In this document: positions 1,952 to 45,968 of the stretch, piece after piece
How the letters are laid out: every line of letters begins with the position of its first letter
Numbering within the stretch: the first letter of the stretch is position 1
From: Anaerolineae bacterium
GTDB taxonomy: Bacteria; Chloroflexota; Anaerolineae; Anaerolineales; UBA4823
Assembly: GCA_003130835.1 (NCBI GenBank)
Contig: QEXX01000059.1
Coordinates: forward strand, 219 to 64,218
Direction: 5' to 3'
Length of the DNA: 64,000 nucleotides
Program-made: the position numbers and the translations under genes
The notes under the pieces: generated by a model
Database searches by the model: none
Told to the model about the DNA's origin: nothing
What the model saw: only the letters and a program-made list of their open reading frames with translations

Positions 1952-2425
1952 TCAAGCAACCCCTTCTAAGTTTGCCATCTCATCCTTTTCACTAACCGTC
2001 AGCACCTTGGCTAAATCGAGCAAGATGATCAACCGCTCACCCACTTTGGCAATTCCGGTGATAAAGGCGCTATTGATCGTAGTTACCATAGGGGGTGGAG
2101 GTTCAATGGCTTCTTCTTGCACCCGCAAGACCTCAGACACTGCATCTACAATCATGCCGATTTTCATTCCATCCATTGAGGTCACGACAATGCGTTTATC
2201 CTCGCGGCTGGTCTCAGCATGCGATTCTTTCGAGCCAAGCCCAAAGCGTTTGCGCAAATCCATCACCGGCAATACACTGCCTCTTAAGTTGGTAATGCCT
2301 TCTACAAAAGCTGGGGCTTGGGGCACAGCTGTAATCGGCTGCATTTTGATAATGCTCTCTACTGCAGCGATGTCAACGCCGTAATGCTCATTGGCTAATT
2401 CAAAAACTACAAGCTGGCGTTCCAT
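1952..2425 (-). CDS. cheW: Chemotaxis coupling protein CheW
   Basis: 157 aa. LVVFELANEHYGVDIAAVESII...FVEGITNLRGSVLPVMDLRKRFGL is a typical CheW fold signature. It is the last gene of the che operon. Confidence 0.9.
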   Translation of the reverse strand: MERQLVVFELANEHYGVDIAAVESIIKMQPITAVPQAPAFVEGITNLRGSVLPVMDLRKRFGLGSKESHAETSREDKRIVVTSMDGMKIGMIVDAVSEVLRVQEEAIEPPPPMVTTINSAFITGIAKVGERLIILLDLAKVLTVSEKDEMANLEGVA

Positions 2426-2443: not shown

Positions 2444-4099
2444 CTAATTAGTACCATAGACTGGCTCGGCTAATACTCCACTAGGAAGTCCGAGGGCTTC
2501 TTCGTTAGGCATCCCGTCCGGCAAGGATGACCGATCGTCGAATTGAAACTGCATGACGATTTTGTTCAACTGCACAGCTAGCGCAGCTAGGGACTGGGCA
2601 GCCGCAGCCACTTCTTCCACTTGAGCCGTCATTTCTTCTGCCGAAGCCGAAACCTCCTCAATGGCTGCCGAGTTCTCTTCAGCGACCGAAGCAATGTTCT
2701 CGATCGCTTGGGTTACCGTTTGTGCTGAAGCCGACATTTGTTCTGAAGCGAAGATATTCTGTTCTAACACAGAAGAAACCGCATCCATGGCGGTGATCAT
2801 TTCTTCGGCTGCTTGTTGCATTTGTGCAGAAGCATTGCTCGTATTCGAAGCCCGCTTTTGAACCATCTCTGCCGCATCTAAGATATTTGAAAGGGAATGG
2901 CCGGATTCATTCGCCAATTTCATGCCTACCTGAACCTCATCAGTGGTTTCATTCATCGATGCGACGGCCTCTTGCACGGTGGCTTGAATGCGTTTGACCA
3001 ATTCACCGATTTCCTTGCTCGACAAGGCGGCTCGTTCCGCCAATTTGCGCACCTCATCCGCAACGACTGCAAAGCCCTTCCCATGCTCGCCGGCTCGAGC
3101 CGCCTCGATGGCAGCATTGAGCGCCAGCAGATTCGTCTGAGAAGCAATATCTTGAATCGTCTCCACGATCGAGTGGATTTCAGCCGAGCGCTCTCCCATC
3201 TCGCGCACTTTTTCAGCCGAGCTATTTACCTTAGATACGATTGCTTGCATACTGCGGATGGTAGCTTCCACGCTCTTAAATCCATCTTGCGCTGCCTTAG
3301 TGGCGTTAACCGCATTTTCAATTACGGTTTGGGCGTTGGAAGCTACCTGGCGAATGATGGTCGAGATTTGTGTCGTGAGGTTAGAAGCAGAAGCAACCGC
3401 CTTTGCTTGCTCCTGAGTGCCTGAAGCGACATTTTCAATTGCTCGAGATAACTGGTCTGTAGAAGCAGCCGTTTGGGCAATCGACTCTGATTGCTGACCA
3501 ATCCCTTTCGTTACTTGCTGAACCGTAGCTGCAATTTGCGATGTGGCTTGCCCGGCTAGATCAGCTGAACTCGCCAATTGGGTAGAAGCTTCATATAACG
3601 ATTGACTGCTCTTTGCCACTTGTTGGATGGAATGTTTGAAGGAGTTAATCATCCTTGAGAACGCATTTCCGAAGATGTCTTTCTCAGAACGAGGGGTTAC
3701 TTGGATCCAGAGCTTTCCTTCGGCAAGTTGCTCACTCAAAAAAGCCATCTCGGCTAGATAGGCGATCATCTCATAGAATGCAGATACCAGTTGCCCGATC
3801 TCATCTTTGGAATTTTGCTCTACTTTGACATCTAACTCGCCCCGTGCAATCTTTTGGGCACTGATCGTTAGCTGTTCAATGCGGGTTACCAACTGATCGA
3901 TCCATTTCCAAACGACCAGTAAGGCGAGGATAATGAAGGCTAGTGAGACTAGCACCATATTCCGTAACAAGTGCTCAACTTGAGCGCGTTGAGTTAATAC
4001 TGCAGTGATGCTCAGTGCAAGTGCAAGGCACACAAAACAAGAACCAAACCATACAATCAAGGTGGTTTTCAAAGAAGTTCTTCCCAATGATGACTTCAT
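2444..4099 (-). CDS. Methyl-accepting chemotaxis protein (two TM helices, HAMP domain, MCP signalling domain)
   Basis: 551 aa. It has N-terminal TM helices and a HAMP-like segment ([17 protein letters not shown]). The conserved signalling hairpin is [39 protein letters not shown]. Confidence 0.9.
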
Positions 4100-4346: not shown

Positions 4347-5621
4347 TCAGCTCAGAATGTTGAGCGCCTTGCGCATTGTTTCAGCCCATTGGAGGCTTTG
4401 CAAATAGATATCCCGAATGAGATCATTGTTTAGATGGAGAAAATGAACCTTCTCCCATTCAGCTCTCTCATAGGCTAAGACGCATTGGAGTACCTGGCCA
4501 ATCATCCCCTTGCCTTCAAGTAATCCCTCTTTGATAACCATGGACAACCGAATATTTTCCAACAATTCTTCAAGAGGGGTATCCATAATTGCATCCAAGG
4601 CAGAAAGCAAGCCAGCTAGGAAATAAGACTCGGGATCACTCAGTTTGGCATGAATCGCCAACAATTCACTCATGCGCGCCCGTACCATTGCCAGGATTGT
4701 CAATTCGCGAGGCTTATCCTGCTTCTCGGCAAGGAGAATCAAGGTAAGCCAACCGCGCAGCTTCTCCAAGCCCAGTAAAGCCATTGCCTGACGGATGGAT
4801 TTAATCTCTGATCGGATGCCGTAATAAGCGGAATTGGTTAGCCGTAAGAGTTTATAACTCAGAATGGCATCCTGTGAGATGATCTGCTCTAGCGCTTCAA
4901 ATCCCACGTCAGGGTCTTGCAGTTTTGCTAACAACTGCATTAAGACAAAGCGGGAGCTAGGCACCTTTCGCCCCGTAATCAGGTTCGGCCGGCAAAGGAA
5001 AAACCCTTGAAAAAAGTCAAAGCCAGCCTGCATACACAAATTCAATTGTTCCTGCGTTTCAACCTTTTCGGCTAATAACTTCGCTCTCTGAAATTGCAAG
5101 CGATAAGCCAGAGGTTGAAGTTTTTCTGGAGGGATTAAGGTCAAATCTAACTTCAAAATATCCGCAACGTTTAATAACGAGCGAATGGTTGCAATGGAAG
5201 CCACGTCATCCAAGGCAATCTGATAGCCTTGCCGGGAGAATTCTTGAATATTGTCGAGGACTTCCTTATCTAAAATCCAATCCTCCGGCACCTCAATGAC
5301 CAGTTGACGAGGAGCAAAGGGAATTGGATATTTTTCAAGGAAAAATTGGCGTGTCAGGTTAATAAAAGCTTTTTGGCGGCCGACAACCTCTTCTAACCCA
5401 ATCTCGGCAAAGGTGTTGAGAATCACCTGAGAGGTCGCTTCATCTTCGTTCAGAAAGGTGGCGGACTCACTTCCTTTACTACGATAGAGAAGTTCATAGC
5501 CTATAACCCGTAAGTATCGATCAAAGATGGGTTGCCTGCCAATAAAAACATTCGGCAACACCCCCGTTGGCAGAACACGGCGCGGAACATTTGGAGGAAA
5601 TTCAGAAAAGTTGTCCCCCAT
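4347..5621 (-). CDS. EAL-domain plus HDOD-domain protein (COG3434-type c-di-GMP phosphodiesterase or sensor)
   Basis: 424 aa. The N-terminal IGRQPIFDRYLRVIGYELLYRS and QLVIEVPE motifs are EAL-type. The C-terminal half (LMQLLAKLQDPDVGFEALEQIISQDAILSYKLLRLTNSAYYG) is HDOD. Confidence 0.85.
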   Translation of the reverse strand: MGDNFSEFPPNVPRRVLPTGVLPNVFIGRQPIFDRYLRVIGYELLYRSKGSESATFLNEDEATSQVILNTFAEIGLEEVVGRQKAFINLTRQFFLEKYPIPFAPRQLVIEVPEDWILDKEVLDNIQEFSRQGYQIALDDVASIATIRSLLNVADILKLDLTLIPPEKLQPLAYRLQFQRAKLLAEKVETQEQLNLCMQAGFDFFQGFFLCRPNLITGRKVPSSRFVLMQLLAKLQDPDVGFEALEQIISQDAILSYKLLRLTNSAYYGIRSEIKSIRQAMALLGLEKLRGWLTLILLAEKQDKPRELTILAMVRARMSELLAIHAKLSDPESYFLAGLLSALDAIMDTPLEELLENIRLSMVIKEGLLEGKGMIGQVLQCVLAYERAEWEKVHFLHLNNDLIRDIYLQSLQWAETMRKALNILS

Positions 5622-5760: not shown

Positions 5761-6276
5761 TCATAAGGTAAAGCGGTTTGCTACAACCGTATTCCCTTGA
5801 GAAATCACCCGTTGGCTGCCTTCCCGCAACGCAAGGTGAATGGTCAAAGAACCGATCTCGCAATTTAGGGGCACAATTAGGCGAGCAAAGTCCAACGTTG
5901 AGATAATCGCCCCTTTTCCCATCAAGAAGGTTGGTGGAGAGATGACTGACTCGTATCCCGCTTGTGCTAAAAGCACACTCGCCCTCCCGGTGATTACATT
6001 CGCTAACTCAGCAATACTGCTCTGGGCAAGGGCACTCAGCGACTTCAATTCTTCTTCCATCATACGAGAAGCAAGAGCAATGGCGGTCTGGTTATTCAAG
6101 CTATAGATCACATTTCCCATCACTTGACCGACCAAACTGATGATGATGGTAATATCATCTGTCGAATAGGGTTCTTTATCGAGGTTTAGCTCACCGCGGG
6201 TAACCGTCAAGCGGGTTTCAGCTTGTAAGACCTGATAGGCTGCTTCAACAAAAGGGTTTAGAAACTTAACGTTCAT
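5761..6276 (-). CDS. cheX: CheX-like CheY-P phosphatase (CheC/CheX/FliY superfamily), paralogue 1
   Basis: 171 aa. The N-terminus MNVKFLNPFVEAAYQVLQAE and its overall size and pattern match the CheX family. The first 14 residues are nearly identical to the neighbouring paralogue. Confidence 0.7.
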   Translation of the reverse strand: MNVKFLNPFVEAAYQVLQAETRLTVTRGELNLDKEPYSTDDITIIISLVGQVMGNVIYSLNNQTAIALASRMMEEELKSLSALAQSSIAELANVITGRASVLLAQAGYESVISPPTFLMGKGAIISTLDFARLIVPLNCEIGSLTIHLALREGSQRVISQGNTVVANRFTL

Positions 6277-6298: not shown

Positions 6299-6820
6299 TT
6301 ATTTTTTCGCTGAATCCGGCACCATTACCGGGACAAAGGTTGATGAGTGCGTTCCAGGAGGGGCTTCCCGCAATGCCAAATGCACCGATACCTCGCCCAG
6401 CTCCGTTGTCAGAGGCACAACCACTCGGGCAAAATCTAATGTAGAGATCGTAACGCCACGTCCGTGAATCAAGGTAGGAGGGGAAATATTCGCAGAATAA
6501 CCCGCTTTTGAAAGCCGGATGGTCGCTTGCCCCGAAATGACATTTCCTAATTCAGCAACGCCACTTTGTGCCAAGTTGTCAAACTCGGGAAATTCTTGTC
6601 CCATCACGCGCGAGACCAAAGCCAAGCCGGTTTTTTCAGACAATCCATAGAGGACAACCCCTTGCACTTGTCCAACCAAACTAATCAGGACGGTCACATC
6701 ATCCGTGGTTAGAGCAGATTTATGCAATGTTAGATTACCACGTTTCACTTCAACGCCACATTCAGCTTGTAGCACCTCTGAGGCAGCTTCGACGAAAGGG
6801 TTTAAGAATTTTACATTCAT
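6299..6820 (-). CDS. cheX: CheX-like CheY-P phosphatase, paralogue 2
   Basis: 173 aa starting MNVKFLNPFVEAASEVLQAE. It is collinear with 5761-6276 (ISLVGQV, ISPPT, ISTLDFAR, HLALRE are shared). Confidence 0.7.
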   Translation of the reverse strand: MNVKFLNPFVEAASEVLQAECGVEVKRGNLTLHKSALTTDDVTVLISLVGQVQGVVLYGLSEKTGLALVSRVMGQEFPEFDNLAQSGVAELGNVISGQATIRLSKAGYSANISPPTLIHGRGVTISTLDFARVVVPLTTELGEVSVHLALREAPPGTHSSTFVPVMVPDSAKK

Positions 6821-7677
6821 GCCATGAATCTCCTTGTCCGAATAAATTCATCTGCTTCTTCGACAAAGGGTAAAATTCGGTCAGAAATCTCGTTGAACTT
6901 ATGATCATTCCAATTCATTCTCTCAACAGCGAGCGGATCCACCGAATACTGCAAGCCATCTTTTCCTAAGCCGATGCCCAGGCTCATCGCAACAGCATCC
7001 GCTAGGTGCACTGCCGCAGCTAAGATTGCACCTTCGTTTGCCTGTGACGGGCGATGATGGTTAGCGATGGCATCCACCAATGGATTGGGTAATCGCCAAC
7101 GACGTGCCAGTTCTGCCCCTAGAGCTGCATGATCAATCCCAAAATGTGACAATTCCATTTCATTAAAGGGGCGCCCTTGCCAATCGGGTTGGCTGGTGTT
7201 GGTATTTCGCAATAATATTTCGAGGGCGAGTTTTCCTATATCACACAATAAGCCGGCATGATACGCTTCCTCGGAGATTTTTTGTCCAAAATCTGCTGCA
7301 ATCAAACGCGCTCCTGCAGCGACCGCAATCGAGTGTCGCCAAAGTTCGCCGCGTTCGAGGGCATAGCCTGGGGCAGGGCGTTCAAGAAATGAGGCTACAG
7401 AAGCAGCAAGAATCAGGCTATGTAAGGTGCGGTAGCCCAAATACGTCACGGCTTGATGAACGGTAGAGACCGGATATTTCAAACCATAGTAGGCAGAGTT
7501 TGCCCAACGTAAGACCAAACTCGTCATCGCTTCATCCATGGCTAAGATTTTTGCTACATCAGCCATATCCGATTTCGGATCTCGGATGAGGTCTAAAGCC
7601 CTTTGAGCCACTTGAGGCATCGGCGGCAACTCACCAACCCTACGGATTAAATCATCCATCGTAACTTCGGGAGACAT
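6817..7677 (-). CDS. Stand-alone HDOD-domain protein
   Basis: 286 aa. LPPMPQVAQRALDLIRDPKSDMADVAKILAMDEAMTSLVLRWANSAYYGLKYPVSTVHQAVTYLG is the HDOD signature. It overlaps the next gene by 4 nt. Confidence 0.8.
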   Translation of the reverse strand: MSPEVTMDDLIRRVGELPPMPQVAQRALDLIRDPKSDMADVAKILAMDEAMTSLVLRWANSAYYGLKYPVSTVHQAVTYLGYRTLHSLILAASVASFLERPAPGYALERGELWRHSIAVAAGARLIAADFGQKISEEAYHAGLLCDIGKLALEILLRNTNTSQPDWQGRPFNEMELSHFGIDHAALGAELARRWRLPNPLVDAIANHHRPSQANEGAILAAAVHLADAVAMSLGIGLGKDGLQYSVDPLAVERMNWNDHKFNEISDRILPFVEEADEFIRTRRFMA

Positions 7678-7679
7678 GA

Positions 7680-8480
7680 CTATACCCTCTCATAAAAAGA
7701 AATTCCCGCATTGCGCAACCCATAGGTTTGCGGATGAGGGATAATTTCCGTTGCCCCAACGAAGAGAACGCCGCCCGGGCGCAAGGCATCTCGAAACGCT
7801 TTATACAATTGATCTTTGGCGGCGGAAGTGAAGTAAATCACCACGTTGCGACATACAATGAGATCCAGCTCTTTCGGAAAAGGATCGGCAAACAAATTGT
7901 GTTCGCGAAACTCCACCTTTTTGATCAGAGACGATGTAACATAATACGGAGGCCCGCCTGGCTGAAGATAAACTGAGCGTTGTGTTGCGGTTAGATTTTG
8001 AATCTCTTCGGTTGTATATGGTCCTCCTTGGCGGGCTTTGTTCAATGCCCCAAGGTCATAATCGGTCGCTAAGATCGAATGTCGCCGACGCGGGGCAAGT
8101 TCATCAAGCAAAATCGCCAAACTATAAGCTTCTGCCCCAATGGAACAACCGGCACTCCAGATCCGTAACCCGCTCTCCGCTAACCCGCGTTGGAGCGCTT
8201 CTTTGAGTAAACGCGGCAACACCATTTCAGCCAAAGTCTTCCACCGTTCCGGGTCACGGAAAAAAGCTGAGACGTTGATTGTAAGATAATCACGAAAGCG
8301 ATTCCGTTCTTTTTCATCGATACGAATACGCTCAAAATAGCTCTTCCAATCCGTAGAACCACTGCGCACTAGCCACGAATCCAACCGTCGGCGCATCTGC
8401 TCATCTTTGTAATGATTAAGATCAAGCTCAAGCAGTCGTTTAACCTGTCGTTTGATATCTTGATAAACCTCTAAGTCCAT
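7680..8480 (-). CDS. cheR: Chemotaxis protein methyltransferase CheR
   Basis: 266 aa. TINVSAFFRDPERW, RIWSAGCSIGAEAYSLAILL and LIVCRNVVIYF are CheR SAM-methyltransferase motifs. Confidence 0.9.
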   Translation of the reverse strand: MDLEVYQDIKRQVKRLLELDLNHYKDEQMRRRLDSWLVRSGSTDWKSYFERIRIDEKERNRFRDYLTINVSAFFRDPERWKTLAEMVLPRLLKEALQRGLAESGLRIWSAGCSIGAEAYSLAILLDELAPRRRHSILATDYDLGALNKARQGGPYTTEEIQNLTATQRSVYLQPGGPPYYVTSSLIKKVEFREHNLFADPFPKELDLIVCRNVVIYFTSAAKDQLYKAFRDALRPGGVLFVGATEIIPHPQTYGLRNAGISFYERV

Positions 8481-9574
8481 TGAACAGCCCTCGCTATTGC
8501 GTCTGGAATGTTCGCTAGAGGAGCTACTTCATCGGCTACGCCAGCTTCAACCACGCTGCGGGGCATGCCCCAAACCACACAACTCGATTCGTCTTCTGCG
8601 ATTACCTTGCCACCAACAGAATGGGTCAAGACAGCTCCGTTGGCACCATCTCTCCCCATGCCGGTTAAGACAACCGCTACCGTAGCTTTGCCGAAATTTT
8701 GGGCAACCGAGATCAGGGTGACATCCACCGCCGGACGAACACCGTGAACGGTTGGATTCTGGTTCAGACTAACACTTCCATCTTTATCAAAGACCATGTG
8801 GAAGCCACCCGGCGCCACTAAAACCTTGCCAACTTCCAACCGATCACCCGGTTCCGCTTCTTTGACCATTAATTCGGAAAGACTATTCAGCCGCTCAGCC
8901 AAAGATCGGGTAAACCCAACGGGCATGTGTTGCACAATCACAAAGGCAGCCGGCAGATCGGCAGAAAGCTGTGGAATCAATTGATTAAGAGCGCGCGGGC
9001 CGCCCGTCGAAGCACCAATGACAACCACCTTATCCGTCTCACGACGGGGACGCACCTTTTTGGGTAACGTATCTCCAGGCCCTTTTTGGGGTAAAGAAAT
9101 GGACGGCGCCAGCGCGATCACCTTTGCCTTTGCGGCACGCCGGATTTTGACCACCAAATCCTCAATGATTTGCTCAATATTGGCTTTGGATTCGGGTTTA
9201 GCGATAAAATCAATTGCTCCAAATGTGAGGGCTTGAATTGTCTCCCGCGCGCCCTCGGTCGTCAGACTGCTGACCATAATTACTGGTGTTGGGCGGGTTG
9301 CCATGATTTGTCTTAGGGTCGTCAAGCCATCCATGTGCGGCATTTCAACATCCAAAGTAATGACGTCTGGTTTGAGACTCTCAAGCAAGTTCAAAGCCTC
9401 TTTACCGTCATGGGCAGCCCCGACAATGGTCAACCCCGGCGTCTCCCCTAAGCGGCGGGTTAGGGTATAGCGCATGAAAGCCGAGTCATCCACGATCAGA
9501 ACGCGGATGTTTTGATCCCCGCTGTTTTGAGGCGAACTCGTGTCACTTGGCTTGCTGGGTGGCAAAGGAGCCAT
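8471..9574 (-). CDS. cheB: Chemotaxis response regulator protein-glutamate methylesterase CheB
   Basis: 367 aa. The receiver domain is IRVLIVDDSAFMR...DVITLDVEMPHMDG. The methylesterase domain is VVIGASTGGPRAL, VIVQHMP and LTGMGRDG. Confidence 0.9.
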   Translation of the reverse strand: MAPLPPSKPSDTSSPQNSGDQNIRVLIVDDSAFMRYTLTRRLGETPGLTIVGAAHDGKEALNLLESLKPDVITLDVEMPHMDGLTTLRQIMATRPTPVIMVSSLTTEGARETIQALTFGAIDFIAKPESKANIEQIIEDLVVKIRRAAKAKVIALAPSISLPQKGPGDTLPKKVRPRRETDKVVVIGASTGGPRALNQLIPQLSADLPAAFVIVQHMPVGFTRSLAERLNSLSELMVKEAEPGDRLEVGKVLVAPGGFHMVFDKDGSVSLNQNPTVHGVRPAVDVTLISVAQNFGKATVAVVLTGMGRDGANGAVLTHSVGGKVIAEDESSCVVWGMPRSVVEAGVADEVAPLANIPDAIARAVQWT

Positions 9575-9586: not shown

Positions 9587-9943
9587 CTATCCAACCAATT
9601 TCGCCACTGCGCTTAGGACGCGCTCCTTCTCAAAAGGTTTGACCACAAAATCACGCGCCCCGGCCTTAATGGCTTCTAAGACAACAGATTCTTGGCCTAA
9701 AGCAGTAAGCATGACCACTTTAGCAGATGAGTCAAAACTGCGAATCTCGCGCAAAGCTGTCAGCCCATCCATCTCGGGCATTGTGATATCCATGAGGACC
9801 AAATCTGGCCGAGCGCTTTTATAGGTTTCAACCGCCTTGAGACCATTTTCTGCCTCGATAATTTCATGCCCTTCGCTGCTGAGCATTTTTGAGATTCTCA
9901 CCCTTAGAAATTCTGCATCGTCCACAACAAGAATTTTTGCCAT
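9587..9943 (-). CDS. cheY: Single-domain response regulator CheY
   Basis: 118 aa. The motifs are MAKILVVDDAEFLR, DLVLMDITMPEMDG and FVVKPF. Confidence 0.9.
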   Translation of the reverse strand: MAKILVVDDAEFLRVRISKMLSSEGHEIIEAENGLKAVETYKSARPDLVLMDITMPEMDGLTALREIRSFDSSAKVVMLTALGQESVVLEAIKAGARDFVVKPFEKERVLSAVAKLVG

Positions 9944-9982: not shown

Positions 9983-10492
9983 TTAGACCTCTCTCTCTTG
10001 ATTTCCAACGGTGCGAATCGTCATTCGACCGTCGCGGACATAGAATCGAACTGTCCGTCCGATGGTGCCACCGACTTCCTCAGCAACCAGCCTTAAGCGT
10101 AGTCGTTGCAACGTCTCATGAGCAGCTTCGACATTGCGAGTGCCAATATTAAAGGTGTGGGCAAAGCCGGGCGCAGTAAGCATATTGGCACCTCCTGCCA
10201 TGCGTACAATAATTCGCGAAGGGACAGCACCAGCTTTGATCATTTCTTCCAATAGAAGCTCAATCCCCGAGGTGACATACTTGGCACTCTTTTCAACAGC
10301 ACCGTTAGGGCTAGAGGGCAACACGGCATGAAGCAAGCCGGCTAGGCGAAGCTGGGGATCGTACAGACCGATTCCAACACAAGAGCCTAATCCATAAGCG
10401 ACAAGGACATCGCTGACCGTGTGGCTGATTTTGTATTCACCCAATCCGACTGCGAGATTATCCTGCATTCTTTGCCTCAATTTGTTTCGCAA
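9983..10492 (-). CDS. cheD: Chemoreceptor glutamine deamidase CheD
   Basis: 169 aa. GLGSCVGIGLYDP contains the catalytic Cys, and GGANM and FNIGTRN are also present. The start is uncertain; an internal Met at 10468 is possible because the ORF overlaps cheC. Confidence 0.85.
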   Translation of the reverse strand: MRNKLRQRMQDNLAVGLGEYKISHTVSDVLVAYGLGSCVGIGLYDPQLRLAGLLHAVLPSSPNGAVEKSAKYVTSGIELLLEEMIKAGAVPSRIIVRMAGGANMLTAPGFAHTFNIGTRNVEAAHETLQRLRLRLVAEEVGGTIGRTVRFYVRDGRMTIRTVGNQEREV

Positions 10493-11075
10493 TCGTTTCG
10501 ATGGTATGATGATCCGGGATCAACCAGAAATCTGCTTGGGTTTCCCTACCGTTGCGCAAAAATTTGGCTTGCACCATCAGCACTTCTTCACTCAGCACGT
10601 CTGCGGTGGCAAGGATAACATCCATGATCGCGCCCACCATATCGACGATGACTGCTGGTGGTGAGGGTCGCGCCGCCAAGCCAGCCTTATCCGCAATTGC
10701 ATTAAGGAAAAAGGAACCGGTTAGGTTTCCCAATTCTGCCAAAGCCGACCTTTCCATAGGTCCCAAATGCTTTGTCGTCCCCGGCGGCTCTCCCATCGTC
10801 AAATCAGCGAGTTCTAGGGCTTTCGGATAGGGAATCACCATCATAATTTGTCCGGGGATAGCCCCCTCGACGCGCAAATAAATGCCGACGGCCTCCGTCT
10901 CCGGACCTCCTAACAGGGTAGGAATTTCATAGAAAGGTACAGCTTTGACGGTTGGCATTGTCACGGTGAGGTCCTCGCCAACCATTGCCGACATTCCTCT
11001 AGCTGCATTGCGAATGCCAATATTCGCCATATTGGCTAAAACAGTTTGAAAGTGTTTTGCGTATTCCTCATCCAT
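10458..11075 (-). CDS. cheC: CheY-P phosphatase CheC
   Basis: 205 aa. The second active-site motif S-x3-E-x2-N is present (ERSALAELGNLTG). The first site looks degenerate (TVLANMANIG). It sits between cheA and cheD, as in CheC/CheD systems. Confidence 0.8.
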   Translation of the reverse strand: MDEEYAKHFQTVLANMANIGIRNAARGMSAMVGEDLTVTMPTVKAVPFYEIPTLLGGPETEAVGIYLRVEGAIPGQIMMVIPYPKALELADLTMGEPPGTTKHLGPMERSALAELGNLTGSFFLNAIADKAGLAARPSPPAVIVDMVGAIMDVILATADVLSEEVLMVQAKFLRNGRETQADFWLIPDHHTIETIAKQIEAKNAG

Positions 11076-11093: not shown

Positions 11094-13376
11094 TCAATCC
11101 GGTAGTCTCTCAAAGCGACCACTGCGCTCGCTCCAGGAGGTTACTAACTTAATTAATCCTTGTACATCAATCACTAAAGCTACCTGCCCATCACCCAAGA
11201 TCGCCGCATTGGAGATTCCAATCACTTCACCAATCACCGAACTGAGGGACTTGACAACAACCTCTTCTTCCCCAATCAAATCGTCTACAATCAATCCCAA
11301 TTGAGACTTTCCCGAACGCACCACAACGATATATTCATAATCATTCTTTGTTCTGCCATGATCACGACTTTGCAGAGCAAATACTTCCCCCAAATTACAC
11401 ACGGGCAAGACATGCTCACGCAGGCTAATCACCGGCCTGCCATTAACGGTTTGAATGTCTTTAGCCTTGATGCGCAATGTCTCATTCACGGTGACCAAGG
11501 GAATCGCATAGGTTGACCCACACACTTTAACCAACAAGGTGGGTACGATTGCCAGCGTTAACGGAAGAATAATGGTGAATTGGGTGCCTTTACCGAGCCA
11601 AGTCTCGACCTGAATGTTTCCATTCAATTGCTCGATATTAGCACGCACGATATCCATGCCAACTCCTCTACCGGAGACATCGCTGACTGTGCGAGCGGTT
11701 GAGAGGCCAGAGACAAAGATTAACTCGATCGCCTCATCCTCGCTCATTGCATCGGCTTCAGCTTGCGTAATTTGCCCCTTTTCAACGGCTTTGGCTTTGA
11801 CTCGGTTGACATCAATCCCACGCCCATCATCTTCTACGGTAATATAAATTCTCCCCTGCTCATGGCGGGCGGTCAGTAAAATAATGCCGCGCTCCGGTTT
11901 TCCAGCTGCGCGTCTTTCTTCTGGAAATTCAATCCCATGATCGACAGCATTGCGAATGAGATGGATCAGGGGATCACTGATGACTTCGAGCACCGAGCGA
12001 TCGAGTTCTGTATCTTCCCCACGAATGACCAAGTCAATTTGTTTGTTTGCTTTTCGCGCCAAATCTCGCACCAAGCGAGGAAACTTATTAAACACGTTGG
12101 AGATCGGCAACATGCGAATCGACATTACTTCCGATTGCAGCATATCCGTGATGCGCCCAACATGGATAATCGTATCGGATAGCGCTTCCACTTGCGGTGA
12201 CCCCCGATAGAGAGCTTCTAACTCTCGCCGCAGTTGGTACATGCGATTGCGATCGGTGATGAGCTCGCCGATCAAGTTCATTAGGTTGTCTAGGCGTTCT
12301 ACACTGGTGCGGACCGTTTTATCGATGACTTTTGTGCGGCCTTTGTCAGTGGTATCCGCCTCGGCAGATACCATCGCAGGGGCTTTCTTCTGTGCGGATT
12401 GCTCGGCAATGATTTCATCAAGGACCTCTTGAGAGACCCACCCCATCCCAACCAGAATCTGCCCCAAAGGTTTTGAGGGGCCTTCGCTCTCCCTCTGGAT
12501 ACGAAGAGCCGTTTGGAGCTGTTCTTCGGTTATAAGTCCATTTTGCACCAGCAATTCCCCTAAGGAATATTTGGCTTGTGGTGCAGGTCTTGATTCGACC
12601 TGGACAGGTTTCGTTTCAAGCGTTTCACTTTTGAGTTGCTCGCCCTCGATGAGGATCTCTTCTAGTTCAGAAATCATTGAAAGCGATTTACGAATTTCAT
12701 AAAGGGGTTTAGTTGGTCGGAACATCACCGTCAGCCAAGCTACCGGTGTTGCCGATTCGATCACCGAAAGCGGCGGATTTAATTCCAGAATATGCCCCAT
12801 TTCCTGCAAGGCGAAGACAACCTGTAAAGCACGTGCAGCCGAAGCAATACTCTCTTGGCTGATCTTCACCTGAATGGTCAGGGGCTGGCTAGTTTGATCA
12901 GCTTGGTTGGTTGATTGAGCCTTTTCTGATGGCTGTGAGGCAATTGAGGCTGGTTTTTGGATCGAGCTCGCTGAGCCGCTTTGGACTCCGCTTAGCTGTT
13001 GGAGTTGAGCAATAATCGAGTGAACATTAATAGAGCTAAGTTCCTCGCTTCCGACTTCGTCAAGTAATTGATGCAAGCTGTCCAAAGACTCCAACATGAC
13101 ATCGATTAACTCAGACGAAGGCTCAAGAGCTTGTTTGCGCACCCCATCTAAAACGGTCTCCAATGCATGGGTCAGCTCAACCATGCGTTTGTGACCGATC
13201 ATGCCTGCGGAGCCCTTCAGAGTGTGCGCGGCGCGGAAGAGCGCCTGAACCAATTCTTGGTCTTGAGATTTGCGTTCCAGTTGCACCAAGCCTTCTTCCA
13301 AAATTTGCAGTTGGTCTTCGGCTTCAGCTCGAAAAATGGGGAGTTCTTCTTCCGTAATATCAAAGCGAGTGTTCAT
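11094..13376 (-). CDS. cheA: Chemotaxis histidine kinase CheA (Hpt, inserted MshEN-like motif pair, dimerisation domain, HATPase, C-terminal CheW-like domain)
   Basis: 760 aa. The Hpt motif is FRAAHTLKGSAGMIGH. The N/G boxes are LIHLIRNAVDHGIE, VEDDGRGID and GRGVGMD. A C-terminal CheW-like domain is present. Confidence 0.9.
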   Translation of the reverse strand: MNTRFDITEEELPIFRAEAEDQLQILEEGLVQLERKSQDQELVQALFRAAHTLKGSAGMIGHKRMVELTHALETVLDGVRKQALEPSSELIDVMLESLDSLHQLLDEVGSEELSSINVHSIIAQLQQLSGVQSGSASSIQKPASIASQPSEKAQSTNQADQTSQPLTIQVKISQESIASAARALQVVFALQEMGHILELNPPLSVIESATPVAWLTVMFRPTKPLYEIRKSLSMISELEEILIEGEQLKSETLETKPVQVESRPAPQAKYSLGELLVQNGLITEEQLQTALRIQRESEGPSKPLGQILVGMGWVSQEVLDEIIAEQSAQKKAPAMVSAEADTTDKGRTKVIDKTVRTSVERLDNLMNLIGELITDRNRMYQLRRELEALYRGSPQVEALSDTIIHVGRITDMLQSEVMSIRMLPISNVFNKFPRLVRDLARKANKQIDLVIRGEDTELDRSVLEVISDPLIHLIRNAVDHGIEFPEERRAAGKPERGIILLTARHEQGRIYITVEDDGRGIDVNRVKAKAVEKGQITQAEADAMSEDEAIELIFVSGLSTARTVSDVSGRGVGMDIVRANIEQLNGNIQVETWLGKGTQFTIILPLTLAIVPTLLVKVCGSTYAIPLVTVNETLRIKAKDIQTVNGRPVISLREHVLPVCNLGEVFALQSRDHGRTKNDYEYIVVVRSGKSQLGLIVDDLIGEEEVVVKSLSSVIGEVIGISNAAILGDGQVALVIDVQGLIKLVTSWSERSGRFERLPD

Positions 13377-13534: not shown

Positions 13535-13942
13535 TCAGAAAACTCCTTGATTATTGAGAAAACGGGTGTACTGCTTATCCGTTTGAAGAATGTGATCAGC
13601 TACCCAAGATTTCAAAAAGTTTAGCAATTGCACCGAAAGCCCCATTGGGTTCTGACGGTACTGACGTTGAAACTCTTGGACTTGGCGGGTTAGTTTCGCA
13701 TGTTCAGCTTTGTGATGGACGTAACCCGGAAAGTTATAGGCTTCCATCAGTCGCTCTTCGGTCTCAAAATGATATTGCGTGTAATCGATCAAACGGTTTA
13801 TGATGTCATTGATCATTTGGGAGCTCTTCCCTTCACGCATGGCACGATGAAGCTGGTTGACGATTTCAATCAGCTGCCGGTGTTGGTTATCGATTTCTTT
13901 GATATTCACCGAGAAGTCATCCATCCAAGTGATAAGGGTCAT
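13535..13942 (-). CDS. Bacteriohemerythrin (single-domain hemerythrin-like metal-binding protein)
   Basis: 135 aa. ITWMDDFSVNIKEIDNQHRQLIEIVNQL, HFETEERLM, HHKAEHAKL and WVADHILQTDKQY give the H...HxxxE...HxxxH...HxxxxD ligand pattern. Confidence 0.85.
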   Translation of the reverse strand: MTLITWMDDFSVNIKEIDNQHRQLIEIVNQLHRAMREGKSSQMINDIINRLIDYTQYHFETEERLMEAYNFPGYVHHKAEHAKLTRQVQEFQRQYRQNPMGLSVQLLNFLKSWVADHILQTDKQYTRFLNNQGVF

Positions 13943-13963: not shown

Positions 13964-14626
13964 TTAGATAAGGGTAAATTTTGTTGGATCAATGGCTTGT
14001 CCATTCTTCCTGACTTCGTAGTGCAAATGCGGTCCGGTCGAATTACCCGTATTTCCAGAGTAACCGATGATCATCCCTGCGGTTACCTTATCTCCGATTT
14101 TGACTGGAATTTTGGATAGGTGGGCGAAATACACTCGATAAGGGCCGTTTTCAATGATGACCAAATTTCCATAGCCCTGGTCATTCCAACCCGCATAAAC
14201 CACTTCGCCATCCAAAGTCGCCTTAACCGGTGTGCCAACCGGGACACCAAAGTCGAGAGCAATATGTCCACTGTGTGACTCCTGAGTTAAGCGCCCCTTC
14301 ACCGGCAAACCGCGCGGGGCATCCACCGGCTGGCTCGATGCGACCGGCGACTTAGGGAACTCAACGGTTTCCACTTGATCGGCAAGCAGTTGTTCGAAAA
14401 GGCTGAGCATCAGTGGCGCCATCAAATTGCTCATTCCAAATGGTTCGGATCGGTCACTAGAAGCTCCCTGAGACACCATGTTGCTCAGCAAAACCAAGGT
14501 CAGCAATTTCCGAAAATCCGCTTTGTCAATCGAAGCATCTTGCGAATTTGACTCCCTGTTCGAGGCTGACTCCGTTGGTAAGGTTGAACGAAAAGCAAAC
14601 AGAGGATAAATCAAAGAACTATCCAT
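13964..14626 (-). CDS. M23 (LytM-type) peptidase
   Basis: 220 aa. The LytM motifs are HIALDFGVPVGTPV, YGNLVII and GYSGNTGNSTGPHLHYEV. Confidence 0.85.
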   Translation of the reverse strand: MDSSLIYPLFAFRSTLPTESASNRESNSQDASIDKADFRKLLTLVLLSNMVSQGASSDRSEPFGMSNLMAPLMLSLFEQLLADQVETVEFPKSPVASSQPVDAPRGLPVKGRLTQESHSGHIALDFGVPVGTPVKATLDGEVVYAGWNDQGYGNLVIIENGPYRVYFAHLSKIPVKIGDKVTAGMIIGYSGNTGNSTGPHLHYEVRKNGQAIDPTKFTLI

Positions 14627-20479: not shown

Positions 20480-22096
20480 CTATGGCAAAAACCAATTTAG
20501 GATCAGAGGTAAATAGTTAATCAATCCAGATGGTTGCGGTCCAGGATAGGGACCAGGTTCTGTCGTTGGCGGAGGGTACGGAGGAACGACGGTGGTTGGT
20601 GGTGGAGTCGTTGGAGCAGGTGTGTTCGGCGGGGGTGTTGTCGCAGCCGGTGCGGTCGGGCTTGGGGAGGAGTTATAGACCAAATAATTGGCTCCCAAAC
20701 CGACATTCGAGACACCGTATTTGATTCGCATGTAACCACCTTCCCCCCAATAAGGTCCCCACGAATTTCTCAAAATCCACACCCCTTGCGAATCATCCCA
20801 CCCAACCAACACAATGCCATGGTTGACCAATGAGCTACCGCAAACTGTTTTCTCGTCCGTTGCAAAGACCCCACCCCGATAATATTCAAAAGCGGAGCCA
20901 GCGCAAACCGCGGCTGCAACCGGTCCGTAGGTATAAATCGCCTGTTTGATCGCCGCAGGTGAAGGAATACTGTCATAGGTACTGATGTAATGCCAAGAAA
21001 GGGCACGGTAAGGATGGGAGTAAGGGCCATTACAAGGGAGATCAGCAGCTTGATAGCGGAAAGAGCTTTCCAGCACCGCTCCGGCTTGGCTTTCACTCGG
21101 AGGAATTTTCCAAATATGGTAATCATGGGCAAACCAACCGCCATCACAACCCCAATTATTCGTATTGCAAGAGACCAGATATTGCTCTGAGAGATCTTGA
21201 CTGTTGTTATCGGCAATTAGAAGTTTGGACTCAAGGACTCCAACGGTCGAAAAGGCCCAACAGCTCCCACAATTACCCTGATTACGCACCGGGGTGCATT
21301 TCCCTAAACTACACCAGTTAAACGCAGTAGGAAGCTCTTGGGCAGCAGCGATTTGCTCGGGTATCGGCGTACTCACCTTCGGAAAACCATCCACGGGATT
21401 GGCACTGTCCATCGCAGTGCTTGGGACGTGCAGACTGAGGCTCTGAGCTAAATCGCTTAGCCAGACTTGCTCCGCCTGTACCCTATACACGATCCCTGCA
21501 GAAGATTCGGTCTCCCAAGGACGGTGATAGCGTAAGCTAATTGTGGCTATTGTTGAACGAAGGGCTCGCAATGAGATGCTCTGAGCAGCCATGCCACCGA
21601 TGCGGGGAATCATTTGGCGCATCTGAATTTGCTCTCTCGTGATGGTTGTATTCGCCACCCCGCCTTCCACTTCCCACAAATAGCCCGTGGAAGGGTTACT
21701 GGGCAGAACCAGTTGAAAGGTTTGTCCCGCCTGAACCCGCCCCTTGAGTTCGAGGGTCATCTCGCCGGCCAAAGTGCTGAGCCCGCAAGGGCTCTCCAAG
21801 AGGAAGGCTCGCAAATCAGCCATCGAGGTTCCGGAGAAGATTTTCTCTGGCGCAGACAGAGAACTGGTTTGCTTCGTGCGCTGGATACCTTGCCAAGCGC
21901 CATCTGCTTGAAGATCAAACGAGAATTCGGTTTGCCCTTGCGAGAGAAAGTAACAGCTTTGTGGGGAAGGCGTGAAAACCCATTGACCGAACGCTGCTCG
22001 AGCAGGGGCACGGAACACCCCGAAGGACAAGCTCAAGATACTGCCAATAAGAAATAAGGTTGAAAAAAAGAGTTGATGAAGGCGGGAAATCTTCAT
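20480..22096 (-). CDS. Secreted papain-family (C1A) cysteine protease with an N-terminal chagasin-like I42 inhibitor domain and a Pro/Thr-rich tail
   Basis: I start at Met28 of the ORF (MKISRLHQLFFSTLFLIGSILSL, a signal peptide). The I42 motifs are NPSTGYLW, GGMAAQ and YHRPWE. The C1 catalytic triad context is NQGNCGSCWAFS, VNHGIVLVGWD and LRNSWGPYWGEGGY. Confidence 0.85.
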   Translation of the reverse strand: MKISRLHQLFFSTLFLIGSILSLSFGVFRAPARAAFGQWVFTPSPQSCYFLSQGQTEFSFDLQADGAWQGIQRTKQTSSLSAPEKIFSGTSMADLRAFLLESPCGLSTLAGEMTLELKGRVQAGQTFQLVLPSNPSTGYLWEVEGGVANTTITREQIQMRQMIPRIGGMAAQSISLRALRSTIATISLRYHRPWETESSAGIVYRVQAEQVWLSDLAQSLSLHVPSTAMDSANPVDGFPKVSTPIPEQIAAAQELPTAFNWCSLGKCTPVRNQGNCGSCWAFSTVGVLESKLLIADNNSQDLSEQYLVSCNTNNWGCDGGWFAHDYHIWKIPPSESQAGAVLESSFRYQAADLPCNGPYSHPYRALSWHYISTYDSIPSPAAIKQAIYTYGPVAAAVCAGSAFEYYRGGVFATDEKTVCGSSLVNHGIVLVGWDDSQGVWILRNSWGPYWGEGGYMRIKYGVSNVGLGANYLVYNSSPSPTAPAATTPPPNTPAPTTPPPTTVVPPYPPPTTEPGPYPGPQPSGLINYLPLILNWFLP

Positions 22097-22641
22097 AGGG
22101 ACTCTTGAGGAAACTTCAAAAAACTGCTTCGTAAAGGATTGATGATTCAGACACATTTTAGCACATGAAGGAATCACTACAACTTAACAATTTTGCAAGA
22201 AACAAAATTGATGCAAATTTATATGATATTCAGTGGAGAACACACCTTAACCCCCTTGTCCACAAGCTTAAATCTTAGACTAGTTAGGGTTCACCTGAAC
22301 CATTCACTAGGGTTCAAAGAAAACCTCTACAGCAGGAAGTTCATCCATCACCCTCGAGCTGGATTGTTCAGCATCAAAAGCATCCAAAGATTGAAGGTCA
22401 CACCCAAGAACCTTTTCGACCAATCGGTGAGTTTGCCCATCCTTTGGAATAGTACGGTTTCCATAAAGGATTGTGCTTTTAGTTGTCAGAAAGCCAGTTT
22501 CACACGGCATATTCTCACAAGGTATAATCTACTTAATGCCCCTCCTGATTGGTTCCATGATTGCACTACGAAAATGTCAAGTACAACCTCGTTTGGGAAC
22601 TGTTGAGCCTTTCAGGACGTCTTGAGCGAAAAGGAGTTCTC

Positions 22642-34117: not shown

Positions 34118-35719
34118 CTATCCCTTGCGGGCGTAATTCGGGATCAAAATAGGGGAACGCACAGCCCCATTAACCCCGATTTCATCCAACGCACGGTTCC
34201 AGCTTTCCAAGTGTGCCAAGGTCGGTTTACCGGGTTGGCGTTCTTTGGCTAACTGGGCAGCGGTGACGCCGGCGCGGCGTCCAAAGACGCACACATCCAG
34301 CAAACTGTTGCCCATCAAGCGGTTTCGCCCATGCACGCCGCCGCTGGTCTCTCCGGCTACCAACAAGCCGGGCACACTGGTGCGGCAGTCGGCATCGATC
34401 TTCACCCCTCCGTTTTGATAATGCAAGGTAGGATAAACCAAGATCGGTTGGTGTACCATGTCAATATTGAAGCGTCTGAATTGACGCACCATGGCTGGCA
34501 AAGCCTTTTCAATGGTGCCCGCACCATGAATGAGATCAATCATCGGCGTATCCAGCCACACGGCTGGTTGACCGCTGGGCGTGATCACGCCTAAATTGCG
34601 CTCTTTGCATTCGCGAATGAAAGCGGCTGCTTCGACATCGCGTGGTTCCAGGGGATAAACAAACTGCTCACCCTTGACATTAACCGGCTGAGCGCCCAAG
34701 CCGCGCACTTTTTCAGTGACCAATTGACCTAAAATCTGTTCGGGATAGGCTGCTCCGGTTGGATGGTATTGCATGGTATCCAAAAAAGCCAGTTCTGCGC
34801 CAGCGCGGTAAGCCAATACAATCCCGTCGCCGGTAGCGCCGTAATGGTTAGTGGTTGGAAAACCCTGGTAATGCAAGCGTCCACTACCACCAGTTGCCAA
34901 GACAACCACCTTAGCTCGAGCATAGAAATAGCGTTCGGTCTCAAAGTTCATCAAAATCGCCCCACAAACCGCCCCTTTGTCATCAAGCACCAATTCCACG
35001 GCTGGGCAGAATTCAATGACCTCGATATTCGGTCGGTTGCGCACCTCATCGCGCAAGACACGCATAATCTCTGCCCCGGTATAGTCCCGGGCCGAGTGCA
35101 TGCGTTTGATGCTCGTGCCACCGCCGTGTTCCTCCATCATCACCCCATCGGGGGTTTTATCGAACATGACTCCCAAGCTTTCCAGCCAAGCGATCACAAT
35201 CGGCGCATCCTTAACCAGCGCTTCCACCAGGTCGGGAAAGTTGGTGAAGTGTCCGCCACCAATTACATCCAAGTAGTGCGTAGCGGGTGAATCTTCGGGC
35301 CGGTCGGCAGCTTGGATACCACCCTGTGCCATCATCGTATTTGCATCCCCGAAGCGCAGCTTGGTAACCAAAGTTACCTTTGCACCGTTTTCCTGAGCTA
35401 GGAGAGCAGCACTCGCCCCGGCTCCACCGCCACCGACGACTAAAACATCGGTTTCAAAATCAGGATTGCTCAAATCGAAATGAGCATCAACGTGCGGTCG
35501 GCCTTCGACAACATCTGCCAATTCAATCGGCATGCGCTTGCCTTTATAGCTACCAATGCGCACTTCGCGCATCCCCGATTCGATGTAATCCGGATGAAAT
35601 TTCTTAAGCAGCTCTTGGCGTTCTTCTAAGGGCATCGCCGGAAAAGTTTGACCTAAACGTTGAGGGCGCGTGGCTTCAACAATCTTGAGCTGTTCGAGCA
35701 ATTCGGCTGTGTAAGTCAT
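34118..35719 (-). CDS. FAD flavoprotein of the SdhA/FrdA/NadB/AprA superfamily with an N-terminal extension of about 90 aa; substrate unknown
   Basis: 533 aa. The motifs are DVLVVGGGGAGASAALLA, MQYHPTG, TEKVRGLGA (in place of RGEGG) and RLMGNSLLD. Confidence 0.8.
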   Translation of the reverse strand: MTYTAELLEQLKIVEATRPQRLGQTFPAMPLEERQELLKKFHPDYIESGMREVRIGSYKGKRMPIELADVVEGRPHVDAHFDLSNPDFETDVLVVGGGGAGASAALLAQENGAKVTLVTKLRFGDANTMMAQGGIQAADRPEDSPATHYLDVIGGGHFTNFPDLVEALVKDAPIVIAWLESLGVMFDKTPDGVMMEEHGGGTSIKRMHSARDYTGAEIMRVLRDEVRNRPNIEVIEFCPAVELVLDDKGAVCGAILMNFETERYFYARAKVVVLATGGSGRLHYQGFPTTNHYGATGDGIVLAYRAGAELAFLDTMQYHPTGAAYPEQILGQLVTEKVRGLGAQPVNVKGEQFVYPLEPRDVEAAAFIRECKERNLGVITPSGQPAVWLDTPMIDLIHGAGTIEKALPAMVRQFRRFNIDMVHQPILVYPTLHYQNGGVKIDADCRTSVPGLLVAGETSGGVHGRNRLMGNSLLDVCVFGRRAGVTAAQLAKERQPGKPTLAHLESWNRALDEIGVNGAVRSPILIPNYARKG

Positions 35720-35728
35720 GCCAACCTC

Positions 35729-36418: not shown

Positions 36419-36444
36419 TCCTTAAGAATAATTCATCGATCAAG

Positions 36445-37551: not shown

Positions 37552-37599
37552 AGTTCCTTCTCTATCTCCATTCGTCCAGATGTTCTACCAACATAGACA

Positions 37600-38031: not shown

Positions 38032-38072
38032 CCGTAAACTCCTTGCTTTCACTCCAAATTGCGCATGCACAA

Positions 38073-42596: not shown

Positions 42597-42597
42597 C

Positions 42598-44045: not shown

Positions 44046-44217
44046 ATTTCAACCTTTTCGGGTTTGTTTTGGGTTGTGAGTTTTGAGTTCTGAGTTTTGG
44101 ACAGAGTATTTCTTTTGAAATTAAGGTCGCTTCTTTTATTTTTTTGGCTTCTTCGCATAGAGCAATGAGCATTTGCCTTTCCGCTTGCATCTCTACCCTA
44201 AACCCACAACTCACAAC

Positions 44218-45957: not shown

Positions 45958-45968
45958 GCGTTATCTCC

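Follow-up and report, generated by a model that had tools for sequence, protein, structure and literature searches.

The change between a motile and a sessile life is governed by cyclic di-GMP (c-di-GMP). The known connections of this messenger with chemotaxis involve PilZ receptors, adaptors or the flagellar motor; the chemotaxis kinase CheA is not among them. Described routes include PilZ chemoreceptors (Cbp1, PMC6454048), MapZ acting on CheR1, and PlzC of Vibrio cholerae (PMC12799141), and PMC7288161 lists the kinase CckA as bound by c-di-GMP in its CA domain. With Cbp1, MapZ, PlzC and CckA, the c-di-GMP level reaches a histidine kinase or chemosensory output via receptors, adaptors or a catalytic domain, and none of them relies on a dedicated receptor domain within CheA. 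Here we analyze a CheA with an insert of a c-di-GMP receptor family, encoded in a 64,000-nucleotide stretch of DNA from an Anaerolineae bacterium of the phylum Chloroflexota (contig QEXX01000059.1, positions 219 to 64,218), hereafter referred to as the window. The insert lies between the P2 and P3 domains and is assigned below to MshEN_N, the N-terminal subdomain of MshEN. We consider it probable, though well short of certain, that this insert binds c-di-GMP and thereby feeds a second-messenger signal into the chemotaxis kinase.

The fusion of MshEN_N to CheA is not new. The main text of Wang et al. (2016, Nat Commun 7:12481) names 'chemotaxis protein kinase CheA' among the partners of MshEN, and the CheA-MshEN_N architecture is already listed there for Aeromonas veronii CheA (Supplementary Table 4 and Fig. 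3c). The window CheA has the architecture of this fusion class (Supplementary Table 4). The two proteins share an identical domain order with the insert at the same place (approximately residues 260-342 in A. veronii, 271-326 here), and both contain MshEN_N only, without MshEN_C, lack the Arg of motif I (Met in A. veronii) and have a long spacer between the motifs (9 residues in A. veronii). They differ at position 1 of the two motifs, which is Met/Lys in A. veronii and Ser/Pro in the window CheA, and the distribution published for CheA fusions, 'Actinobacteria, Proteobacteria' (Wang et al. 2016), contrasts with the Chloroflexota (Anaerolineae) origin of the protein described here. In our literature search we met no paper describing a CheA that binds c-di-GMP directly, and the reviews checked make no mention of such a CheA. 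The original prediction, which was made from the sequence of the window, held that no characterised CheA with this insertion was known. Taken literally this statement stands, as we found none that had been studied experimentally, but the novelty that it implied does not survive the listing of Wang et al. (2016). What the present analysis adds is the spread of the fusion into Chloroflexota, its prevalence in Anaerolineae, the variants at position 1 and an explanation for the failure of Pfam to recognize the domain.

The prototype receptor, V. cholerae MshE (MshEN, PDB 5HTL), shares with the insert two 24-residue motifs, a four-helix bundle and conserved L2, G3, L17, L21 and Q24. In MshE, position 1 of either motif is Arg, the spacer has 5 residues, and the domain includes a C-terminal alpha/beta subdomain and is fused to a secretion/pilus ATPase, whereas the window CheA has Ser and Pro at these sites, a spacer of 8 residues and no C-subdomain, its domain being embedded in a histidine kinase. 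The closest sequence matches to the insert in the PDB are PilF's domains GSPII-B and GSPII-C, and GSPII-C shares its Pro at motif II position 1. Unlike the insert, these two domains have a C-subdomain, are part of a pilus ATPase and lack Ser at motif I position 1, and GSPII-C has three motifs. GSPII-A of PilF and the N-domain of XpsE have the same fold as the insert, and one motif of GSPII-A begins with Ser; a possible N-cap also occurs in CheA. GSPII-A is devoid of both Gln24 and of the motif II Gly3, and Xanthomonas XpsE carries many substitutions at key positions (PMC5013675); none of these changes is found in the window CheA.

The product of the window gene is a CheA: the five domains P1 to P5 are present in order, each above its Pfam cutoff (Hpt 14-102, P2 167-243, H-kinase_dim 353-420, HATPase_c 468-607 and CheW-like 614-743), the gene is part of a che operon, and the protein is 100% identical to the NCBI entry 'MAG: chemotaxis protein CheA [Anaerolineae bacterium]'. 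Translation of 12396-12569 on the minus strand gives YSLGELLVQNGLITEEQLQTALRIQRESEGPSKPLGQILVGMGWVSQEVLDEIIAEQS, that is CheA residues 270-327, which confirms the 58-residue segment that had been predicted ahead of the dimerisation domain; the Pfam coordinates place it between P2 and P3. The gene and the features surrounding the insert are as follows.

11094-13376, minus strand: cheA, an open reading frame of 760 amino acids with the domain order P1(Hpt)-P2-MshEN_N-P3-P4-P5.
12648-12878, minus strand: P2 (CheY-binding) domain, residues 167-243 (PF07194, 35.8 bits).
12570-12629, minus strand: flexible linker from P2 to MshEN_N, residues 250-269, with a predicted local distance difference test score (pLDDT) below 50 in the full-length model and a conservation of 0.23.
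12399-12566, minus strand: MshEN_N domain, residues 271-326, a four-helix bundle with a predicted c-di-GMP pocket (NF053729, phmmer against the PDB, AlphaFold2, Foldseek).
12495-12566, minus strand: motif I, residues 271-294, SLGELLVQNGLITEEQLQTALRIQ, with Ser at position 1.
12471-12494, minus strand: spacer, residues 295-302, RESEGPSK (8 amino acids), of low conservation (0.38).
12399-12470, minus strand: motif II, residues 303-326, PLGQILVGMGWVSQEVLDEIIAEQ, with Pro at position 1.
12315-12383, minus strand: flexible linker from MshEN_N to P3, residues 332-354 (pLDDT below 50 in the full-length model; conservation 0.34).
12117-12320, minus strand: P3 dimerisation domain, residues 353-420 (PF02895, 56.8 bits).

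The motif tested was xLGxx(L/V/I)(L/V/I)xxG(L/V/I)(L/V/I)xxxxLxxxLxxQ in two tandem 24-residue copies. Both halves of the CheA insert fit it at positions 2-24, Trp at II-11 and Ile at II-21 being conservative variants, and the predicted fit of both halves at every position after the first is upheld against the published relaxed motif. Given the composition of CheA, 0.0066 single motif matches and 7e-7 tandem pairs are expected per protein, and the tandem motif is therefore not a product of chance. At least one motif match arose in 116 of 20000 shuffles of CheA, and a six-frame translation of the whole window contained no match beyond the two in CheA. The NCBIfam profile NF053729 ('cyclic di-GMP-binding domain-containing protein, MshE-related') matches residues 272-326 over positions 2-53 of its 53, with an alignment that runs end to end across the 8-residue spacer. 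Its score is 61.1 bits for the whole CheA and 67 bits for the insert alone (curated cutoff 38; E-value 6e-17). All 56 aligned insert-bearing homologues match this profile at E≤1e-6, and none of 5 close CheA homologues without the insert reaches E≤1e-5. The C-terminal c-di-GMP-sensing regions of NfrB-type glycosyltransferases match as well in the comparison with curated profiles. When the 67-residue insert was searched against the PDB using phmmer, significant E-values were obtained for MshEN/GSPII domains only. Thermus thermophilus PilF came first (4.5e-14, with all three PilF domains aligned), and PilB (~3e-6) and V. cholerae MshE (5HTL, 4.4e-5) were also found.

An AlphaFold2 model of CheA residues 253-344, built from a 22-sequence alignment, consists of four helices (272-278, 284-296, 304-310 and 316-330) with a core pLDDT of 80-92. 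In a separate model of the full-length protein, pLDDT is 76-87 at residues 270-331 and falls below 50 at 250-269 and 332-354. Foldseek searches of the PDB with the predicted insert structure ranked 5HTL ('MshE with cdg') first, with a root-mean-square deviation (rmsd) of 0.8-1.9 Å over 58-62 columns and a probability of 1.0, followed by c-di-GMP complexes of PilF GSPII-B; the top nine PDB matches are all MshE or PilF GSPII domains (rmsd 0.8-2.3 Å). The E-values are only ~0.1, in keeping with the small size of the domain (~60 residues). The predicted four-helix bundle thus superposes on solved MshEN_N structures, and the models portray MshEN_N as a folded module in the tether from P2 to P3-P4-P5, flanked on either side by predicted disordered linkers of ~20 residues.

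The Pfam family PF05157 gave no match to the window CheA at E≤10. A score against this T2SSE_N model had been proposed as a check of the insert, described as MshEN/T2SSE_N-like; the MshEN_N part of that description stands, the T2SSE_N (PF05157, MshEN_C) part does not, and the outcome of the check is explained by the boundaries of the model. As the supplement of Wang et al. (2016) shows, PF05157 is a model of MshEN_C alone, a subdomain that CheA lacks, so that the missing match does not refute the assignment. Beyond the motif pair, CheA has a disordered linker and then P3, with no C-terminal alpha/beta subdomain; the insert is not a full MshEN and therefore belongs to the class 'MshEN_N only, no T2SSE_N1 domain' of Wang et al. 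Two controls, taken from the proteins retrieved with the insert profile and compared with a PF05157 copy of 90 positions, have the motif pair ahead of the Pfam match, which aligns directly C-terminal to it: 118-175 and 187-256, respectively, in P0195, and 6-61 and 119-205 in P0203. Weak sub-threshold Pfam matches to FumaraseC_C (profile ~24-50), DUF4388 (~46-76) and DUF2949 were seen over CheA residues 227-335, and they recur over the MshEN_N pairs of the controls P0195, P0203 and P0216. These weak matches are the fingerprint of a domain that is not modelled by Pfam.

The silence of PF05157 and the modest Foldseek E-values, the latter expected for such a small domain, are what could be said for a generic CheA helical linker that resembles the MshEN motif by chance. 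The boundaries of the Pfam model account for the former, and such a linker would have to produce a tandem motif expected 7e-7 times per protein together with an NF053729 E-value of 6e-17 and PDB phmmer E-values down to 4.5e-14. CheAs without the insert, including those of Leptolinea, have Pro/Ala-rich linkers in its place, and in the 5 that were tested no NF053729 match attains E≤1e-5. We rejected the chance linker on the basis of the tandem expectation and of these insert-less CheAs, and count it as refuted.

The pattern of conservation is that of a domain. Among 56 homologues the conservation of the insert (0.61) is close to that of P2 (0.64), as compared with 0.23 and 0.34 for the flanking linkers and 0.38 for the spacer between the motifs, and the most conserved insert positions are those that contact the ligand in MshE. 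In motifs I and II, respectively, G3 is conserved in 55 and 56 of the 56 sequences, L6 in 55 and 56, L17 in 56 and 51, and Q24 in 52 and 38. L2, G3, L17, L21 and Q24 are near-invariant in motif I of the homologues, and G305 and L308 of motif II are invariant. A curated hidden Markov model (HMM), sequence matches to solved structures, the predicted fold and this domain-like conservation support CheA residues 271-326 as a genuine MshEN_N domain, and the predicted MshEN-type motif pair is supported by these four independent lines.

Of the best 120 homologues in the database, ~105 contain the insert. When GTDB species-representative genomes were scanned with an alignment that comprised the insert and P3, 513 relatives were confirmed. 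The best 80 of these are all Chloroflexota and, where named, all of class Anaerolineae, including Anaerolinea, Leptolinea, Levilinea, Bellilinea, Ornatilinea apprima, Thermanaerothrix daxensis and T. solaris. A strict tandem regular expression is positive in 39 of these best 80 loci, which is an undercount, as row-by-row reading adds ~13 loci with a more divergent second half for a total of ~52 of ~74 evaluable loci. MshEN_N-bearing CheA is the usual form of CheA in Anaerolineae. About 20 Leptolinea-type CheAs (L054-L069, L073, L075, L077-L079, L081) have a Pro/Ala-rich low-complexity P2-P3 linker in place of the insert; the existence of such close Anaerolineae CheAs means that the insert was gained or lost within the class. 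Four further CheA homologues of 966-987 amino acids (P0033, P0049, P0050 and P0054) are without the insert and have ~290 extra N-terminal residues before Hpt, CheA models beginning to match at residues 289-299. Searching a library of 1.84 billion proteins with the insert profile yielded 30,204 matches, of which the best 150 are multi-repeat MshEN_N proteins; the CheA fusions outside Chloroflexota (Actinobacteria, Proteobacteria) are taken from Wang et al. (2016), not from this search. The strongest matches to the insert profile (P0121-P0134 and others) are proteins of 390-1180 amino acids with 5-9 tandem MshEN_N-like stretches, compared with three in Thermus PilF. For Anaerolinea thermophila, the one member of Anaerolineae tabulated there, Table S5 of Wang et al. 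(2016) lists 15 GGDEF and 10 HD-GYP proteins, no PilZ protein and, as its only known c-di-GMP receptor, a single MshEN protein that is not named.

The insert of the window CheA departs from the consensus at position 1, for which three versions have been published or used: Arg (strict), R/K/L (extended, Neissner 2024) and R/K/P/N (relaxed, Wang 2016). Among 123 distinct CheA inserts, position 1 of motif I is R in 64, P in 19, K in 16, S in 10, Q in 6, L in 4, H in 3 and W in 1, amounting to 80 inserts with R or K, and position 1 of motif II is L in 78, P in 20, T in 10, M in 8 and R in 3. Spacer length in the same inserts ranges from 4 to 12 with a mode of 8 (62/123). The closest relatives of the window CheA, at 81-85% identity, have the same Ser/Pro combination, which is a minority, derived state within CheA inserts. 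A basic residue, K269, is located two residues upstream of motif I position 1 (K269-Y-S-L-G, with K269 and Y270 encoded at 12570-12575). K or R at this position -2 occurs in 28 of the 43 inserts without R/K at position 1 versus 1 of the 80 with it, following the pattern [KR]-x-[S/P/Q]-L-G (homologues P0001-P0031, L005 and L007; Fisher p ~1e-15, a value that overstates independence because the association comes largely from one clade). Held across 60-100% identity, this residue suggests that a basic side chain has been relocated, and it may represent the relocated guanine-stacking or phosphate-contacting residue.

Published measurements on MshEN domains indicate how much such departures matter. 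In MshE, mutations of conserved hydrophobic residues cost more than 10-fold in affinity, and alterations of Arg9, Asp12 and Gln32 shift it no more than fivefold (PMC5013675). According to PMC11731258, PilF GSPII-B binds c-di-GMP with a dissociation constant (KD) of 6 nM with K167 and L196 at its first positions, for which the authors extend the consensus to (R/K/L), and GSPII-C, whose sole deviation is a Pro (P335) at motif II position 1, binds at ~0.3-0.5 µM. Because GSPII-B binds without Arg and the effect of Arg9 is at most fivefold, Arg at position 1 modulates affinity and is not essential. The isolated N-subdomain suffices for c-di-GMP binding, with values of 350 nM for MshE and 54 nM for PilF159-221. 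The spacer of the GSPII-C stretch that aligns best to the insert has 7 residues, as compared with 5 in MshE, 8 in the window CheA and 9 in A. veronii CheA, and motif I of GSPII-B, KLGELLLQKGWIS, has Trp at position 11, the same motif position as in CheA but in motif I instead of motif II. The caveats attached to the original prediction, namely the lost Arg, the spacer of 8 and the Trp, are factually correct and are softened by these binders, since GSPII-B has Trp and no Arg, and GSPII-C has Pro and a 7-residue spacer. By analogy with GSPII-B and GSPII-C taken together, loss of Arg, a longer spacer and Trp appear compatible with c-di-GMP binding.

We propose as the most likely mechanism a model, conditional at each step, in which c-di-GMP would occupy a pocket formed by L272/G273 and L287/L291/Q294 of motif I together with L304/G305 and L319/I323/Q326 of motif II. 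Relatives of the Arg/Leu type such as T. daxensis CheA are likely to bind c-di-GMP. For the window CheA itself, with its Ser/Pro variant, binding at physiological concentrations is a reasonable expectation that we hold with clearly less confidence.

Several observations weigh against binding. Ser271 lies outside all three versions of position 1 and Pro303 is accommodated only by the relaxed one, leaving small or non-stacking residues at both of the position 1 sites where guanine is stacked. PilF GSPII-A (PDB 9G1W) fails to bind c-di-GMP despite a near-consensus sequence, and restoring consensus residues did not rescue it (PMC12002112). The stretch Y270-S271-L272-G273-E274-L275 of CheA fits the N'-Ncap-N1-N2-N3-N4 pattern described in PMC12002112, and we infer that the hydroxyl group of Ser271 could occupy those helix-start amides with which MshE recognizes O6/N7 of guanine. 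The clade dependence of the K/R(-2) association, noted above, tempers the argument from a relocated basic residue. A literature search, which did not cover subscription-only papers, turned up no experimental work on the MshEN_N of any CheA, and the effect of c-di-GMP on the ATPase of full-length MshE in vitro is below 10% (PMC5013675). The genomic context is also imperfect: neither a GGDEF (diguanylate cyclase) nor a PilZ signature was detected in a six-frame translation of the window, and the EAL-HDOD gene of the che cluster described below is, like the hemerythrin gene, not at the corresponding position in T. daxensis.

These points feed the most serious alternative, in which the insert would be a degenerate MshEN_N that has lost binding, like GSPII-A and XpsE, and has been kept in the tether between P2 and P3 as a small folded spacer or as a module for protein interaction, for instance by fixing how long the tether is or by docking a CheX, HDOD or CheC partner. 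The replacement of the stacking Arg in both motifs, by Ser and by Pro, is what it would predict. Moreover, the non-binder GSPII-A starts motif II with Ser and has its site blocked by an N-cap, the Y-S-L-G-E-L of CheA fits an N-cap box, and a footnote to Table S4 of Wang et al. states that some of the listed proteins have no recognisable binding motif. The failure of GSPII-A is, however, associated with a wider set of defects: His/Arg in place of both terminal Gln, Ser at motif II position 1, Ala in place of the motif II Gly, and an extra N-terminal helical turn held by the N-cap and the C-subdomain (PMC12002112). The other defects of GSPII-A and XpsE are absent from the window CheA, in which both Gln24, both Gly3 and every hydrophobic position are retained, the predicted helix alpha1 begins at L272 without extension, and no C-subdomain is present to lock the N-cap. 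The Ser/Pro clade has also kept its ligand-contact positions, something that a simple spacer would not call for. We regard loss of binding as unlikely on this evidence, while giving it real weight.

A different ligand, such as 3'3'-cyclic GMP-AMP (cGAMP) or cyclic di-AMP, could be bound by the insert instead of c-di-GMP. MshEN does bind cGAMP weakly (PMC5013675), with a KD of 330 µM as quoted in PMC7288161, and the base-stacking residues at position 1 differ in the window CheA. Specificity in MshE is provided by helix-start backbone amides that read guanine O6/N7 (PMC5013675), and both motifs preserve this LG-helix geometry; specificity for c-di-GMP is common to the curated model and to every characterised relative. 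We consider this alternative highly improbable.

If c-di-GMP is the ligand, its binding would constitute a direct second-messenger input into the chemotaxis kinase. MshEN_N modules, which in the ATPases MshE, PilB and PilF are bundles of 53-56 residues, bind one c-di-GMP with nM to sub-µM affinity in a process that involves local helix unwinding (PMC11731258). The bound ligand could stiffen or re-shape the tether that brings P1 and P2 to the ATP site of P4, altering its reach and dynamics, or could create a docking surface for a partner. Either change would raise or lower the autophosphorylation of CheA or its phosphotransfer to CheY and CheB. The small effect of c-di-GMP on the MshE ATPase means that binding need not change enzyme activity directly, and a partner-dependent mechanism is quite possible.

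cheA is part of a cluster that reads, on the minus strand, M23 peptidase, bacteriohemerythrin, cheA, cheC, cheD, cheY, cheB, cheR, HDOD, cheX, cheX, EAL-HDOD, methyl-accepting chemotaxis protein (MCP) and cheW. The corresponding order in T. daxensis is M23, cheA, cheC, cheD, cheY, cheB, cheR, HDOD, cheX, cheX, a ParA-like gene and cheW. The neighbours of cheA in the window are listed below.

13964-14626, minus strand: M23 peptidase, upstream of cheA here and directly upstream in T. daxensis.
13535-13942, minus strand: stand-alone bacteriohemerythrin (NF033749, 158 bits), directly upstream of cheA.
10458-11075, minus strand: cheC (PF04509), at the same position in the T. daxensis operon.
9983-10492, minus strand: cheD (PF03975).
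9587-9943, minus strand: cheY (PF00072), 118 amino acids.
8471-9574, minus strand: cheB (Response_reg and CheB_methylest).
7680-8480, minus strand: cheR (CheR_N and CheR).
6817-7677, minus strand: HDOD (HD-related) protein (PF08668, 184 bits, and HD), at the same place in T. daxensis.
6299-6820 and 5761-6276, minus strand: two cheX genes (PF13690 in both).
4347-5621, minus strand: EAL-HDOD protein (EAL 55.5 bits, model positions 114-236 only; HDOD 80.7 bits).
2444-4099, minus strand: MCP with a HAMP domain.
1952-2425, minus strand: cheW.

Both the EAL-HDOD gene (4347-5621) and the HDOD gene (6817-7677) lie in this minus-strand cluster, as had been predicted, and the position of the HDOD gene in T. 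daxensis shows that it is conserved in the operon. In T. daxensis, the slot of EAL-HDOD is filled by a gene for a ParA/MinD-like ATPase. The EAL domain of the window protein is divergent and compact, the Pfam match being confined to the C-terminal half of the model, and comparison with the PDB and NCBIfam gave only weak EAL matches. Its sequence shows ELLYR (ExLxR-like), EVPE, LDD, KLD, AEKVET and QGFF, which we take to resemble the catalytic and ligand motifs of EAL domains, and its architecture presumably resembles that of Bacillus subtilis PdeH/YuxH. The protein is a candidate c-di-GMP phosphodiesterase or sensor and could set the local c-di-GMP level. The chemosensory system might receive O2 or redox information from the bacteriohemerythrin. 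Wang et al. (2016) list MshEN_N-Peptidase_M23 fusions in cyanobacteria; we looked for the MshEN motif in the CheX and M23 proteins of the operon, as in their table for other phyla, and found none.

Elsewhere in the window, at 20480-28545, one protease is paired with two types of inhibitor: the minus-strand gene at 20480-22177 encodes a cysteine protease of the papain family with a fused chagasin-type inhibitor domain, and next to it, on the plus strand (22561-28545), is the gene for a 1994-amino acid bacterial alpha-2-macroglobulin. Genes for flavin and iron-sulfur oxidoreductases in which CCG (heterodisulfide-reductase-like) domains occur form a run at 34118-48271 on the minus strand that includes, at 38073-42638, a 1521-amino acid fusion of two FAD/NAD-binding modules and ferredoxin domains.

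Because Pfam-based annotation is blind to MshEN_N, surveys based on PF05157 undercount the domain. The wider proposal that follows from the distribution of the insert is that CheA itself would be a c-di-GMP receptor, with the messenger acting in the P2-P3 tether to gate phosphotransfer, that this would be the standard design in Anaerolineae, and that the clade of the window CheA would have a re-wired pocket with the stacking Arg moved two residues upstream; we find it plausible as a whole, just short of probable. Fusion CheAs are found in cultured species (T. daxensis, T. solaris and O. apprima) whose proteins are expressible, and the natural variants (Arg/Leu, Pro/Thr and Ser/Pro) together with insert-less relatives (Leptolinea) form a ready comparison set. 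Direct control of CheA by c-di-GMP has been predicted from sequence since 2016, and no test of it was found in the literature. A receptor inside the kinase would be the shortest link between c-di-GMP and chemotaxis and, if the prediction is true, CheA would become the first chemotaxis kinase shown to be under direct second-messenger control.

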